The notes under the pieces were generated by a model. That model had not been told where the DNA came from and did no database searches. It worked only from the letters and a program-made list of their open reading frames with translations. The translations under genes and the position numbers were made by a program. This document shows positions 46 through 7,420 of a stretch of 10,726 nt of DNA, piece after piece. Source of the DNA: a virus; the IMG/VR virus record IMGVR_UViG_3300016702_000415; one strand, 5' to 3'. The stretch's first letter is position 1, and each line of letters starts with the position of its first letter.

Positions 46-120
46 CGGGATGTAGCCTAGAGGTCAGGCACGTGATTTGGGATCACGGCCACGCAGGTTC
101 GAGTCCTGCCATCCCGACCA
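46..120 (+). tRNA. tRNA-Pro (anticodon TGG), 72 nt plus encoded CCA
   Basis: Hand-folded canonical cloverleaf. Acceptor is CGGGATG/CATCCCG. D-stem is GCCT/AGGC. Anticodon stem CGTGA/TCACG encloses loop TTTGGGA with U33 and G37. T-arm is GCAGG-TTCGAGT-CCTGC. Discriminator is A, followed by CCA. Confidence 0.85.
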
Positions 121-124
121 AAAT

Positions 125-201
125 CAGGGAGTAGCGCAGTCTGGTAGCGTGCTCCGTTCGGATCGGAGAAGTCGGTGGTTCAAATCCACCCTCCCTGACC
201 A
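125..201 (+). tRNA. tRNA-Pro (anticodon CGG), 74 nt plus CCA
   Basis: Acceptor is CAGGGAG/CTCCCTG. D-arm is GCGC-AGTCTGGTA-GCGT. Anticodon stem CTCCG/CGGAG encloses loop TTCGGAT. T-arm is GGTGG-TTCAAAT-CCACC. CCA is encoded. Confidence 0.85.
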
Positions 202-224
202 AATTCTTGTAGTAGGAGGCCGTC

Positions 225-614
225 GTGAAGAAGAAAACGTTGCGTGACGAATTGATAAAGCAAGCACTGAACGAGATCAACCCGGTTGACATCGTGGAGT
301 ATGTGCAAGCTAACTACGACACGCTTGGTAAGTCTTCTTTCAACGGCCAAGAGATTGTCATCGTCCTGGAAATCAGAAATGACGATGAAGGATATGGCAA
401 TCACTCGTATGAAGGCGTTGGTGTAGATGGCGACGGAAAGGTCTTCTACTGTTTCTCGTCCGGGTGTTCTTGTACCGGCGAATGTGGTATCGAAGGTCCG
501 CACGGCCACGACCTGACGTTGAAGAAGTTTGAAGTAAATGGTAATGCGTTTGACTTATCCAACATCGACGTAGAGACATTGAAGTCGATTCAAGTGGATT
601 TCAGCGATTACTAG
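225..614 (+). CDS. Hypothetical 129-aa protein with a C-terminal Cys cluster (CFSSGCSCTGECGI). GTG start.
   Basis: The ORF is preceded by a strong Shine-Dalgarno TAGGAGG at 213-219, 5 nt before GTG at 225. Stop is TAG at 612-614. I recognise no family. Confidence 0.55.
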   Translation: MKKKTLRDELIKQALNEINPVDIVEYVQANYDTLGKSSFNGQEIVIVLEIRNDDEGYGNHSYEGVGVDGDGKVFYCFSSGCSCTGECGIEGPHGHDLTLKKFEVNGNAFDLSNIDVETLKSIQVDFSDY

Positions 615-702
615 ACGGAGATAGAGTGGATTGGCGGCGTGAACACTGTAACTTGGACTGTGGGAACCGCCACAAGTTATTTGACAATCGAAAAAGTTTT
701 AT

Positions 703-781
703 AGCCGGGTGATGCAATTTTGGTAGACATCCTATACTCAGAATGTAGGTCTTGTGGGTTCGAGTCCCATCCCGGCTACCA
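703..781 (+). tRNA. Leu-like tRNA lacking the long variable arm (anticodon CAG), 76 nt plus CCA
   Basis: Acceptor is AGCCGGG/CCCGGCT, 7 bp. The Leu-type D-arm has a 3-4 bp stem and a long loop CAATTTTGGTAGA. Anticodon stem CCTATA/TGTAGG encloses loop CTCAGAA with U33, CAG and A37. The variable loop is only 4-5 nt. T-arm is GTGGG-TTCGAGT-CCCAT. Discriminator is A, followed by CCA. Confidence 0.6.
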
Positions 782-865
782 AGTTTGTGCGCTTCGGATG
801 ACGGAACTGGCATACGTTGTATTGAGTTCCCCGAAAGTTCTCTTTACTGTGGATCTGAGATGACC

Positions 866-921
866 ACTGCTGGCAGAGGCGGGACGCAGAGTCCTTGGGA
901 GTTCGAGTCTCCCTCCAGAAA
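866..921 (+). pseudogene. tRNA pseudogene fragment (decayed copy of the CAG Leu-like tRNA)
   Basis: A D-loop remnant CTGGCAGAGG is present. The anticodon hairpin GGGAC-GCAGA-GTCCT is truncated to a 5-nt loop that still contains CAG. The T-arm GGGAG-TTCGAGT-CTCCC is intact. The 3-prime acceptor strand TCCAGAA has no complementary 5-prime strand and there is no CCA. Confidence 0.4.
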
Positions 922-949
922 ATCTGCACATAAGCGCACATTGATTTTT

Positions 950-1143
950 GAGGCAGTAGCTCAACCTGGACAGAGCGCACTAAAACGGAGCGTGGTCCAT
1001 AGCAATGGTTCCAGAAGCACCGAAAAGAGAAATGGAACTCTGACGCCTGTGTGACTCAGGTTGGCTCTACGGAGCGTAGGGAAGCGGGTCATCCAAAGCT
1101 ATGATCGAAAGATGTACGGGTTCAAATCCCGTCTGCCTCACCA
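950..1143 (+). ncRNA. Interrupted or intron-like tRNA gene: Ile-like 5-prime acceptor and D-arm, roughly 135 nt of hairpin-rich insert, then T-arm, 3-prime acceptor and CCA
   Basis: GAGGCAG at 950-956 is perfectly complementary to CTGCCTC at 1133-1139. A canonical D-arm TAGCTCAACCTGGACAGAGCG at 957-977 resembles tRNA-Ile/Met-type D-arms. The T-arm ACGGG-TTCAAAT-CCCGT at 1116-1132 is followed by discriminator A and CCA. No anticodon arm can be folded. The intervening roughly 135 nt contains several hairpins: CTACG-GAG-CGTAG, GTTCCA/TGGAAC, and ATC-GAAA-GAT. Confidence 0.4.
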
Positions 1144-1176
1144 TTTCGTCCTACTGACTGTTATCTAAATAGGAAT

Positions 1177-5663: not shown

Positions 5664-5664
5664 C

Positions 5665-6033
5665 ATGACTTTGAAAGAGATGGTAAAAGACAAGACAGTC
5701 AAGTTCGTATGTTATCGTGACGGCGAACTGACTTATCGGACAGAAGATGGATTCGAGTTCCCGGTCCCGATCAGCGACACCGGCACTGGAACGTTCCTGG
5801 CCGAAGATAAAGCCATCTTGTTCATGCGTTGGATTCGCAAACAGCTTGATTTGGTGAAGGAGTGGAAGTCGGAAGCGGAGAAAGAAGAAGAGGCATATTG
5901 GACGCCCGACGAGCCAATGAGTCCTGAACTGGCCGCAGCCAACAGGAAATTGTTCAACAGCATTTTAAGAGCGAGAATTCCTGAAGAGGCAGTTCTCCGG
6001 TTCACAGAAGAAGATATGGAGAATTTGCCATGA
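5665..6033 (+). CDS. Hypothetical protein, 122 aa
   Basis: It starts 2 nt after the previous stop. It ends in an ATGA overlap with the next ORF. Confidence 0.5.
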   Translation: MTLKEMVKDKTVKFVCYRDGELTYRTEDGFEFPVPISDTGTGTFLAEDKAILFMRWIRKQLDLVKEWKSEAEKEEEAYWTPDEPMSPELAAANRKLFNSILRARIPEEAVLRFTEEDMENLP

Positions 6034-6242
6034 CATACTATCGACAGTGCGTGCTAGTCAAAAAGGCCACACAGCAGGTTGCCTGGATACCGGAGGAATT
6101 TGCTGTGGTTGGTAAATATGTTAGACTGAAAGAGGACGACGGTTGGAAAGTGACCAACACGAGCGAACATCGTCAGAGCGAAGAGTACGTACAGGCGCAT
6201 GAGCGAGATCACATGGGGCATCGTTCGAGAACGGACATTTAA
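6030..6242 (+). CDS. Hypothetical protein, 70 aa
   Basis: An ATGA overlap sits at 6030-6033. It ends 6 nt before tRNA-Ser. Confidence 0.45.
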   Translation: MTYYRQCVLVKKATQQVAWIPEEFAVVGKYVRLKEDDGWKVTNTSEHRQSEEYVQAHERDHMGHRSRTDI

Positions 6243-6248
6243 GATTAC

Positions 6249-6341
6249 GGAAGGTTGGCAGAGTCAGGTATTGCACCAGTTTGCTAAACTGCGGTCAACC
6301 TCTAAAGGGTTGCGGGCGTTCAAATCGCTCACCTTCCGCCA
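6249..6341 (+). tRNA. tRNA-Ser (anticodon GCT), class II, 90 nt plus CCA
   Basis: Acceptor is GGAAGGT/ACCTTCC. Anticodon stem CAGT/ACTG encloses loop TTGCTAA. The long variable arm is GCGGTCAACCTCTAAAGGGTTGC. T-arm is GGGCG-TTCAAAT-CGCTC. Discriminator is G, followed by CCA. Confidence 0.8.
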
Positions 6342-6367
6342 TTTTCCGCCAATGTATAAATATTGGC

Positions 6368-6808
6368 ATGAGTTTGAAATCTGAACGCAACAAGTCCACT
6401 CAACTTGGCATGTCAATGGGAACGGCCAGTGGGCGACTGAAAAAGCTATTGCTGTTTAGCATGGCGCAGCGATTGGGTGAAGATGTTTGTTTTCGCTGCG
6501 CTAACAAAATCGAATCGGTTGATGATTTTACCATTGACCATAAGAAGGATTGGTTGAATGCGGACGCCGGGTTGTTTTGGGATCTGGAGAATATTGCATT
6601 TTCACATAGTAAGTGTAATGTGCCTGGGACGAGACACGGTGGGTATTTCAAGCGAAAGATCGGGCCTGTTGGCACTTCGTGGTGCGCTGGTCATAAGAAC
6701 TTTCTTTTAGTTGAGAACTTTCGGTCGCACGCAGGAATGTTTAACCAACTTTATCGGTATTGTAAGGAATGCGAGGCGGCGAAGAGAAAGAAGTACGAAG
6801 GTAGATAG
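6368..6808 (+). CDS. HNH-family endonuclease, about 146 aa
   Basis: The tiled ORF 6281-6808 starts inside the tRNA. The first ATG after it is at 6368. Motifs are CFRCAN and FTIDHKKDW...LENIAFSHSKCN. The TAG stop overlaps the next tRNA start. Confidence 0.65.
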   Translation: MSLKSERNKSTQLGMSMGTASGRLKKLLLFSMAQRLGEDVCFRCANKIESVDDFTIDHKKDWLNADAGLFWDLENIAFSHSKCNVPGTRHGGYFKRKIGPVGTSWCAGHKNFLLVENFRSHAGMFNQLYRYCKECEAAKRKKYEGR

Positions 6809-6897
6809 AGGATTGACAGAGTGGTAATGTGCCCGCTTGGAAAGCGGAGTCCTGGGCCAAAAGTCCAGCGGGGGTTCAATTCCCTCATCCTCTGCCA
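6807..6897 (+). tRNA. tRNA-Ser (anticodon GGA), class II, 88 nt plus CCA
   Basis: Acceptor is AGAGGAT/ATCCTCT. The D-arm TGACAGAGTGGTAATGTG is homologous to that of the Ser tRNA at 1177. The anticodon loop is TTGGAAA. The variable arm is GTCCTGGGCCAAAAGTCCAGC. T-arm is GGGGG-TTCAATT-CCCTC. Discriminator is G, followed by CCA. Confidence 0.8.
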
Positions 6898-6903
6898 AAT
6901 TTT

Positions 6904-7101
6904 ATGAAGTACAACTGCCGGGAATGCAAGAAAGAGTGGGACACGGTGCAGTCGAACTTACGATGCACTTGTGGGGCGTCTCTGGACGAATCCATTCGCA
7001 TTGCCGACAAGTTGTGGATGGAAGAACAAATGGATCTCCAGGCCGATAAAGCACGCCGGGGATTGGTTTGGAACGAAAGGCGATCAAGTCGTAATGCCTG
7101 A
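6904..7101 (+). CDS. Small Cys-rich (zinc-ribbon-like) protein, 65 aa
   Basis: The junction CCAAATTTTATG is identical to the one upstream of the HNH gene at 1274. Motifs are CRECKKEW...CTCG. Confidence 0.4.
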   Translation: MKYNCRECKKEWDTVQSNLRCTCGASLDESIRIADKLWMEEQMDLQADKARRGLVWNERRSSRNA

Positions 7102-7420
7102 ACTTAGGATTGCCGGATACATTGGTGCGTGGTTGTATCTTGTCCAGATCGCACGTGCGGCGCATCCTGAAGCGTTGTTATCTGCTATGTTCATCATGTT
7201 TGTTGGTATAGCGATGGCAGCGTTCAGCATAGAGATGTTGATTGCTCCGAAGAAAGAACTGACACGTCAAGAGCAATATGAAGGCGACATGTGGGAGCTT
7301 TTCGGAATGGATGTAAGAGATAGAGGGCTGACCGAGCGGAAAGGTACCCGCCTCGAAAGCGGTGGTCTAGGTGAGAATCTAGCGGGGGTTCAATCCCCTC
7401 GCCCTCTGCCATATAAGTAA
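7094..7420 (+). CDS. Possible small membrane protein with two hydrophobic helices. The ORF runs through the next tRNA with no earlier stop.
   Basis: IAGYIGAWLYLVQIARAA and LLSAMFIMFVGIAMAAFSIEMLIAP are TM-like. The C-terminal third is tRNA sequence. Confidence 0.3.
   Translation: MPELRIAGYIGAWLYLVQIARAAHPEALLSAMFIMFVGIAMAAFSIEMLIAPKKELTRQEQYEGDMWELFGMDVRDRGLTERKGTRLESGGLGENLAGVQSPRPLPYK
7322..7411 (+). tRNA. tRNA-Ser (anticodon CGA), class II, 87 nt plus CCA
   Basis: Acceptor is AGAGGGC/GCCCTCT, identical to the Ser tRNA at 1177. The anticodon loop is CTCGAAA. The variable arm is TGGTCTAGGTGAGAATCTAGC. T-arm is GGGGG-TTCAATC-CCCTC. Discriminator is G, followed by CCA. Confidence 0.8.

Follow-up and report, generated by a model that had tools for sequence, protein, structure and literature searches.

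A proline, leucine and serine tRNA gene array of a probable huge tailed phage, with HNH endonuclease genes, short-arm leucine tRNAs and a tRNA-framed RNA

Same-strand clusters of tRNA genes with free-standing homing endonuclease genes interspersed are known from phages T4/T6 (SegB) and T5 (HNH), in which the nucleases drive preferential inheritance, mosaicism and changes in copy number (PMC2330249; PMC13096335). Phages with genomes above 200 kb carry tens of tRNAs distinct from those of the host, with up to 67 documented (Al-Shayeb et al. 2020, PMC7162821), and dense arrays containing HNH genes are also described as tRNA array units of Mycobacterium and other bacteria (PMC5966550, PMC6582537). 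Here, these systems are compared with a stretch of 10,726 nt from the IMG/VR record IMGVR_UViG_3300016702_000415 (the window), in which a tRNA array occupies positions 46-7411. The array with its homing endonuclease genes is an already known kind of feature, and it shows the same pattern as the T4/T6 and T5 regions; two components embedded in it, a group of leucine tRNAs without the long variable arm and a tRNA-framed RNA (element B), are worth following. Taken together, the window probably represents the Pro/Leu/Ser tRNA segment of a huge tailed phage from peat-bog metagenomes, which has been remodelled by HNH endonucleases, has acquired short-arm leucine tRNAs and carries the tRNA-framed RNA as an optional cassette.

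The locus departs from the T4/T6 and T5 regions in that its nucleases are of the HNH and not the GIY-YIG type, four of them lie within 7 kb, the phage would be far larger, and the tRNAs are sorted by isotype in complete isoacceptor sets. Unlike the bacterial array units, which are chromosomal or plasmid-borne and mostly hold most isotypes within a few kb, the array is phage-borne and is broken by protein genes. The comparison with T5-like and huge-phage clusters that the initial annotation had proposed thus places the array among features of the same kind, with HNH genes interspersed as in T5 and with isotype sorting and synteny with a vault-like gene as its differences, and makes it another example of huge-phage decoding capacity reshaped by homing endonucleases.

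As shown in Table 1, 14 tRNA genes, all on the + strand, are called by ARAGORN between positions 46 and 7411, and the same 14 are recovered by the Rfam tRNA model RF00005 at 40.9-67.9 bits (gathering score, 29). The cloverleaf output shows an encoded 3' CCA in every one of them, and spacers of 1-12 nt are found at 120/125, 1969/1982, 2059/2061 and 3822/3830. Five Leu anticodons, four Ser anticodons, and UGG and CGG for Pro are covered. The number of intact genes (at least 14), their orientation, anticodons, CCA ends and tight spacing had been described in the initial annotation and are borne out; the covariance-model scan gives no indication of false positives, and the Rfam scan of the window yields no further isotype or RNA family above threshold. 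Most of the 14 genes are followed by a CCA-A(A/G)-TTT trailer (e.g., 118-126, 1265-1273 and 6895-6903), which may be a processing signal; the ends at 2059, 6341 and 7411 deviate from it, and two open reading frames begin inside the trailer, in the sequence AAATTTTATG.

Table 1. Features of the window, with coordinates, strand and the evidence for each
Feature	Positions	Strand	Evidence
tRNA-Pro(UGG)	46..120	+	ARAGORN, RF00005 60.7 bits; CCA
tRNA-Pro(CGG)	125..201	+	ARAGORN, RF00005 62.4 bits; CCA
tRNA-Leu(CAG), class-I shape, 4-nt variable loop, A73, CCA	703..781	+	ARAGORN, RF00005
Element A, tRNA-derived, no CCA, under tRNA model threshold	787..939	+	Canonical T-arm 897-913
Element B, tRNA-framed RNA	950..1143	+	Covariance model R1 83.4 bits, family covariation
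tRNA-Ser(UGA), class II, G73, CCA	1177..1267	+	ARAGORN, RF00005
HNH homing endonuclease gene, 165 aa	1274..1771	+	PHROG HNH families E 1.6e-14; Pfam HNH weak
Element C, tRNA-derived, acceptor-like helix, no CCA	1764..1878	+	Canonical T-arm 1851-1867
tRNA-Leu(GAG), class II	1884..1969	+	ARAGORN, RF00005
tRNA-Leu(GAG), class-I shape, C33 instead of U33	1982..2059	+	ARAGORN, RF00005
tRNA-Pro(UGG), second copy	2061..2137	+	ARAGORN, RF00005 67.9 bits
HNH homing endonuclease gene, 116 aa	2163..2513	+	PHROG HNH families E 2e-24
tRNA-Leu(UAG), class II	2513..2599	+	ARAGORN, RF00005
tRNA-Leu(CAA), class II	2963..3049	+	ARAGORN, RF00005
HNH homing endonuclease gene, 159 aa	3078..3557	+	PHROG HNH E 2.4e-36
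Element D, degenerate Leu(CAA)-like, 8-nt T-loop	3545..3637	+	Read directly from sequence
tRNA-Leu(CAA), class-I shape	3744..3822	+	ARAGORN, RF00005
tRNA-Leu(UAA), class-I shape	3830..3906	+	ARAGORN, RF00005
R2K-clade ATP-grasp gene inside array, between Leu and Ser tRNAs	4435..5202	+	Pfam R2K_3 E 5.9e-21; phrog_7313 E 1e-60
tRNA-Ser(GCU)	6249..6341	+	ARAGORN, RF00005 45.9 bits
HNH homing endonuclease gene, 146 aa	6368..6808	+	Pfam HNH 25.5 bits, above cutoff; PHROG E 5e-20
tRNA-Ser(GGA)	6807..6897	+	ARAGORN, RF00005
tRNA-Ser(CGA), last tRNA of block	7322..7411	+	ARAGORN, RF00005 42.9 bits
Major-vault-protein-like gene, 843 aa	8097..10628	+	Pfam MVP_shoulder E 1.5e-21; Vault_3; synteny

The phage location is established through relatives (synteny, baseplate genes and a homolog in the phage LR756501) and not on the window itself. 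The vault-like protein shares 70% identity with a gene product on a 405,631-bp IMG/VR contig (L019) and 39% with a protein of the 735-kb phage LR756501, while no PHROG family matches it. In the 405-kb relative, the block runs Pro, Pro, Leu cag, Ser tga, Pro, Leu gag, Leu tag, Leu caa, Leu taa, Ser gct, Ser gga, Ser cga and then the vault-like gene, which is thus the conserved downstream boundary of the tRNA block in both lineages; genes for a gp5-like baseplate hub (PHROG E = 5e-80) and a gp6-like wedge (2.5e-168) lie 8-15 kb downstream. Because this relative shares the block and the vault-like gene and carries baseplate genes, the source appears to be a huge myophage, with the 405-kb contig as its closest sequenced relative. 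In LR756501, unlike in this lineage, no tRNA is found up to 20 kb from the vault-like gene, and the synteny of array and vault-like gene is specific to the 405-kb lineage. Short peat-bog metagenome contigs match the window at >99% identity. The phage origin suggested by the initial annotation is therefore supported by the vault-like homologs and the baseplate genes; the check for an integrase and att sites that it had proposed turned up nothing, with no integrase, att repeat or bacterial housekeeping gene in about 24 kb of reconstructed sequence, and phage structural genes were found in the 405-kb relative.

The restriction to three amino acids, for which the initial annotation allowed a single Ile-like exception, holds in the window, in 5.6 kb upstream (L007) and in 3.9 kb downstream (L015), and does not hold for the genome. 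In the same lineage, the first tRNA-Pro is preceded, at a distance of about 6.2 kb, by tRNA-Met(cat) and tRNA-Val(tac), and the order in the 405-kb relative is Gln, His; Met, Val; the Pro/Leu/Ser block; the vault-like gene; Gly, Gly. The apparent skew is caused by where the window was cut, and the locus is not an isotype-restricted island: the block forms one part, sorted by isotype, of a longer, dispersed tRNA region.

Four open reading frames of the array match PHROG HNH families, with E values from 1.6e-14 to 2.4e-36, and their GC content at third codon positions is 0.43, versus 0.59 in the other genes. A comparison with a strain variant (L008) reveals the mosaicism of the region. Over its first 940 nt, the window is matched by the variant at 99.9% identity; identity then falls to 66-80%, with a changed gene order, and returns to 98.8% at the Leu(caa)/Leu(taa) pair. 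The variant's copy of the first HNH gene (1274-1771) is 79% identical. In the variant, just 7 nt lie between the class II and class I Leu(caa) genes, whereas the window has a 694-nt cassette (~3050-3743) between them, which consists of the HNH gene at 3078-3557, element D and a spacer and takes in 3558-3743 after the HNH gene. The cassette is missing in the variant, and this presence/absence polymorphism has a clean junction with flanks of 98.8% identity. The four free-standing HNH genes would remodel the region in this way, producing strain differences of whole cassettes and mosaicism and leaving tRNA remnants behind; cleavage of alleles that lack the HNH gene is predicted.

Candidate remnants are present. 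A scan for T-arms (a 5-bp stem with a TTCRANY loop, of which ~0.1 are expected per shuffled window) returns the 14 tRNAs and three extra sites on the + strand (897-913, 1116-1132 and 1851-1867), which belong to elements A, B and C; together with element D, four tRNA-derived extras are counted, so that the fragments or interrupted genes of the initial annotation do exist but number four, not five. In element A, the helix GTGCGCTT/AAGCGCAC surrounds a variable-arm-like hairpin and the T-arm. Elements C and D have Leu-like 3' ends without CCA, CTGGCTCA and CCCTGGCTCA; each overlaps the stop codon of an HNH gene (1274-1771 and 3078-3557, respectively). All available strains carry elements A, C and D in identical form; each of the three has an acceptor-like helix and a canonical or near-canonical T-arm and lacks CCA. 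Two more CCA-less tRNA-derived elements, one of them a 108-nt Pro-like frame, are observed in the strain variant (L008 4338-4648). Neither these pieces nor elements A, C and D have homologs in related loci or cultured phages, and none matches the covariance model of element B (R1, described below). Elements A, C and D are inferred to be remnants of HNH-linked rearrangements.

A comparison of the seven Leu tRNAs reveals a major difference in the variable region. Those at 1884, 2513 and 2963 have the normal long arm, whereas those at 703, 1982, 3744 and 3830 are 76-79 nt long with variable loops of 4-6 nt; GAG and CAA occur in both shapes, and CAG and UAA in the short shape only. The five Leu tRNAs of the 405-kb relative are long-armed without exception, including the ortholog of the Leu(CAG) gene at 703, which is of class II and 82 nt long. 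In light of this, the short forms appear to have been added to (GAG, CAA) or substituted into (CAG, UAA) the window lineage. They are not local deletions; the genes at 1982, 3744 and 3830 share U8-A9 and the D-arm CCAAYTTGGCAGRRG with tRNAs of other phages.

These three genes conform to a class-I-shaped lineage defined by a length of 73-79 nt, U8-A9, the D-arm just mentioned, a short variable loop ending in GU, a Leu anticodon and A73. Relatives are found in 188 phage records at 75-88% identity, annotated as tRNA-Leu of 73-78 nt, from phages of Mycobacterium (Bixzunavirus), Erwinia (Kolesnikvirus), Streptomyces (Gilsonvirus), Bacillus, Lactobacillus, Salmonella and Sinorhizobium and from cyanophages; the gene at 3744-3822 is 87-88% identical to a Streptomyces phage tRNA-Leu(caa). 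The gene at 703 represents a short-arm type of its own, whose relatives are found in Xanthomonas, Stenotrophomonas and Aeromonas phages, and an exact-match search of IMG/VR for tRNA-Leu(cag) returned nothing. In bacteria, the pattern has 25 matches in 185,579 species genomes, about one third of them in dense tRNA arrays (7-30 tRNAs within 8 kb) and the others mostly tRNA-Leu genes that stand alone, in Actinomycetota and other soil genomes. The short-arm Leu(GAG) at 1982-2059 has C33 instead of the near-universal U33, which is present in its ortholog in the strain variant (L008 4649-4726).

The cloverleaves of all seven Leu tRNAs, including the four short ones, keep A73, A14, A15-U48 and G18G19. 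The determinants of the Escherichia coli leucyl-tRNA synthetase (LeuRS) are A73, A14/A15, G18G19 and U48, and the variable arm is dispensable (PMC9976931); since these determinants are kept and the arm is not required, the short-arm tRNAs are plausibly leucylated. According to the same review, tRNA-Leu is long-armed in all organisms except animal mitochondria (PMC9976931). This rule fails in phages, where a coherent short-arm lineage extends across phages of Actinobacteria, Proteobacteria, Firmicutes and Cyanobacteria. A tRNA-Leu(TAG) with a short variable loop is reported beside a normal long-arm gene in a horizontally acquired mycobacterial cluster (PMC6582537); the literature search for short-arm phage tRNA-Leu or a tRNA-framed RNA found nothing but the passing remark in that paper. 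Short and long arms with the same anticodons, placed side by side, offer a natural test of what the arm does and of whether its loss protects.

The second component, element B, has a perfect 7-bp acceptor stem (950-956/1133-1139), a D-arm (959-976), a T-arm, A73 and CCA (1141-1143), whereas about 115 nt replace the normal anticodon and variable region. The hairpin H1 (978-994) has a loop with AAACGGA, and the long arm (998-1103) contains the conserved blocks GGTTCCAGAAGCACCG (1007-1022) and GTAGGGAAGCGGGTCATCC (1076-1094). Strains either have element B as a complete unit or lack it. The Ile-like interrupted gene of the initial annotation thus corresponds to a real element, which is not an interrupted tRNA-Ile but a tRNA-framed RNA with an Arg-like loop: a cloverleaf with a 5-bp anticodon stem and a 7-nt U33 loop is absent, and RF00005 gives no match on 940-1150 even at E<=10.

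A BLAST search with element B gives a weak match in Streptomyces phage Comrade, in a gap without annotation that has the same architecture, and further searches extend the family to at least 23 Streptomyces-phage records in three genome-size groups. Additionally, a structural pattern search identifies 18 IMG/VR loci on contigs of 14-437 kb, all 18 with seven of seven acceptor pairs and the T-arm. Members are 152-278 nt long and share a frame consisting of acceptor stem, U8-A9, D-arm, G26, T-arm and 3' acceptor strand, with a discriminator that is mostly A. Within this frame are a hairpin of 4-5 bp, whose 7-10-nt loop carries the invariant AAACGGA, and, at the variable-arm position, a long arm with a 6-bp helix P-a, a GG/CC step and the invariant strands GGUUsCrGAwGCACC and AGGGAAGCGsGU; the apex is variable and forms a hairpin or a three-way junction. 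In the IMG/VR loci, the element is on the same strand as neighbouring tRNAs in 14/14 cases, with a gap of 0-12 nt to the nearest tRNA in five. In phages that encode the CCA of their tRNAs, the element too is followed by CCA.

The structure is supported by a covariance model (R1) built from nine short members, with the window copy outside the training set. All 23 members score 74-175 bits and the window copy (950-1140) 83.4 bits (E = 4e-18), versus at most 40 bits for ordinary tRNAs. In the alignment of 23 sequences, 97.7% of cells pair, versus 78.7% in shuffles, and compensatory changes occur at 21 pairs (hairpin 4/4, P-a 6/6, acceptor 5/7 and T-stem 4/5). The covariation score of 0.524 compares with 0.168 in shuffles (reached by 0 of 500) and 0.06-0.10 for slid partners; the alignment is fitted to the model, which favours the structure, and the inner helices are invariant and lie outside the test. 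In Rfam 15, only a partial tRNA match is obtained for the family: two short homologs score 38-39 bits with RF00005, with 15 anticodon-arm model positions replaced by a 97-nt insert. The family is apparently undescribed and is not in Rfam 15.

Other identities for element B were considered and rejected. It resembles class II tRNAs such as tRNA-Ser and tRNA-Sec in its L-shaped frame with an extra domain at the variable-arm position, and it differs from them in an arm of 75-200 nt with invariant internal loops and in a loop of 7-10 nt with A for U33. Unlike transfer-messenger RNA, it has neither the G3-U70 pair (the acceptor carries G3-C70) nor a tag reading frame, and the corresponding mode of ARAGORN gives low-threshold noise only. 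A small coding gene is likewise rejected, as 1-nt indels between homologs break the reading frames. A group I intron is rejected because there is no Intron_gpI match at E<=10 and the insert, which is 75-120 nt in most members, is placed after a self-contained hairpin. YrlA, riboswitches and ribozymes have no Rfam match at E<=10 on the window, and the homologs match tRNA only partially; unlike YrlA, the element ends at the acceptor and not in a Ro-binding stem. About 2,700 in silico deletions screened with ARAGORN yield only a tRNA-Arg(acg) with a non-canonical loop and reveal no consistent intron boundaries, which argues against a spliced tRNA. Alignment of the long arm with the L11-binding (GTPase-associated) domain of 23S rRNA is no better than that of shuffles in five of six members. 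Arginylation is not confidently predicted, as D-loop position 20, which bears on identity for arginyl-tRNA synthetase, is mostly A but C, U or G in other members.

The ACGGA of CUACGGA, the canonical loop of actinophage tRNA-Arg(ACG), is retained in the loop of the element, and in three phages the element directly follows a tRNA-Arg(ACG) gene, which suggests that it may descend from this tRNA, with positions 32/33 replaced by A residues. The RNA would be matured like a tRNA and act through its conserved arm and loop. The arm may make it a specialised adaptor read by a dedicated factor, like tRNA-Sec; alternatively, the element may act as a decoy that draws off a tRNA-directed host enzyme or a defence nuclease. 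We tentatively propose, at somewhat less than even confidence, that element B represents an undescribed class of phage RNA, with an L-frame derived from tRNA-Arg(ACG), positions 32/33 changed to A, the invariant AAACGGA and a 75-200-nt arm through which it would act after tRNA-like maturation, and that the short-arm Leu lineage reflects a phage-wide removal of a nuclease target. This strongly covarying, tRNA-shaped RNA lies without annotation in cultured Streptomyces phages and can therefore be studied directly in the laboratory; Comrade, Gilson, Alone3 and Kela are among the Streptomyces phages in culture. The short-arm tRNA-Leu lineage is testable in such phages as well. In some GenBank records, a "hypothetical protein" coding sequence overlaps the element (Moab gp140, L063 349-681; LuckySocke gp22), which is probably a mis-annotation.

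For the array as a whole, the genes would be transcribed co-directionally with their neighbours, probably as long precursors that are cut by host RNase P and 3' nucleases, a route suggested by the tight spacers, the encoded CCA and the conserved trailer. The tRNAs would then keep phage translation going independently of the host tRNA pool. The only convincing terminator is a strong intrinsic one after the vault-like gene (10648-10685).

Several points weigh against the interpretation of the window as a remodelled huge-phage segment. Sigma-70 promoters and intrinsic terminators inside the array occur at chance level only, which leaves the transcription units to inference, and transcription, processing and charging of the array tRNAs are predictions. 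That class I Leu tRNAs took the place of class II ones is deduced from a single outgroup, the 405-kb relative. Instead of remnants, elements A, C and D could be RNAs with a function; they are identical between strains and have no distant homologs, so that covariation offers no test. Additionally, the lineage is known from incomplete genome sequence only, and the full tRNA complement and the host lie outside it.

The initial annotation had raised the possibility that the tRNAs counter host tRNA-cleaving defences. The array would then be a dedicated island in which Pro, Leu and Ser tRNAs replace those destroyed by host anticodon nucleases, VapC-like toxins or variable-arm nucleases, with the redundancy and the short Leu forms as cleavage-resistant substitutes. 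Septu and retron-Eco7 cut the variable loop of class II tRNA-Tyr, and the tRNA-Tyr of phage T5 evades cleavage through a different variable loop (PMC13096335). Because this loop is the target, loss of the arm could protect: a Leu tRNA without it would offer no site of this type, and the one class II and one class-I-shaped copy for both GAG and CAA, as well as the ability of homing endonucleases in tRNA regions to amplify anti-defence tRNA genes, are in keeping with such an origin. An anti-defence role is plausible for the short-arm Leu tRNAs; for the array as an island it is unlikely, since the three-isotype restriction vanishes once the flanks are read, the Ser tRNAs are all long-armed, and isotype grouping is also found in bacterial tRNA arrays. 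To our knowledge, moreover, there is no Leu-specific variable-arm nuclease.

Compensation of codon usage, in which the tRNAs would serve Leu, Pro and Ser codons used more by the phage than by the host, is also improbable. Gene dosage does roughly parallel phage usage, with two GAG genes for CTC and CTT (37% of Leu codons), two CAA genes for TTG (26% of Leu codons), and CGG plus two UGG genes for CCG (43% of Pro codons). However, every Leu, Pro and Ser codon occurs in the phage's own genes, the tRNA set serves all of them, the commonest as well as the rare, Leu, Pro and Ser together account for just 18% of phage codons with no enrichment, and further isotypes are encoded nearby. The compensation specific to these three amino acids that the initial annotation had considered is therefore not indicated; because all of their codons are covered and the residues are not enriched, general decoding self-sufficiency fits better than rare-codon compensation. 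A bacterial chromosomal or integrative tRNA array unit is very improbable, because, although bacterial assemblies do hold dense arrays with short-arm Leu tRNAs and HNH genes (PMC6582537), the closest relatives are the 405-kb viral contig with baseplate genes and huge-phage genomes, and the reconstructed sequence is free of the integrative and bacterial genes sought in it.

The remaining observations concern the genes around the array. The 405-kb relative carries a homolog of the ATP-grasp gene on the upstream side of its array (L022 4571-5362), and an IMG/VR search aimed at relatives of the ATP-grasp protein returned nothing. The region 7425-7982 encodes a protein of the dual-specificity/tyrosine phosphatase family with an HCxxGxxR motif, whose N-terminus, MKRLLFALLLCLPVFAQS, resembles a signal peptide and suggests export. 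Directly downstream of the vault-like gene, about 270 nt past the window end (L015 4900-5271), a 123-aa open reading frame with an RF-1 (peptidyl-tRNA hydrolase/ArfB-like) domain is a further translation-related gene near the array. In Streptomyces phage Comrade (L060 1-308), a gene for a band-7/SPFH-like membrane protein precedes the RNA element and the tRNA cluster by ~1.2 kb, and the window array is flanked by the vault-like protein with its SPFH-related shoulder domain, a parallel that may be a coincidence. GC skew is strongly positive (0.06-0.24) over the tRNA/HNH region (1-7500) and slightly negative over the phosphatase and vault-like genes (7500-10726).

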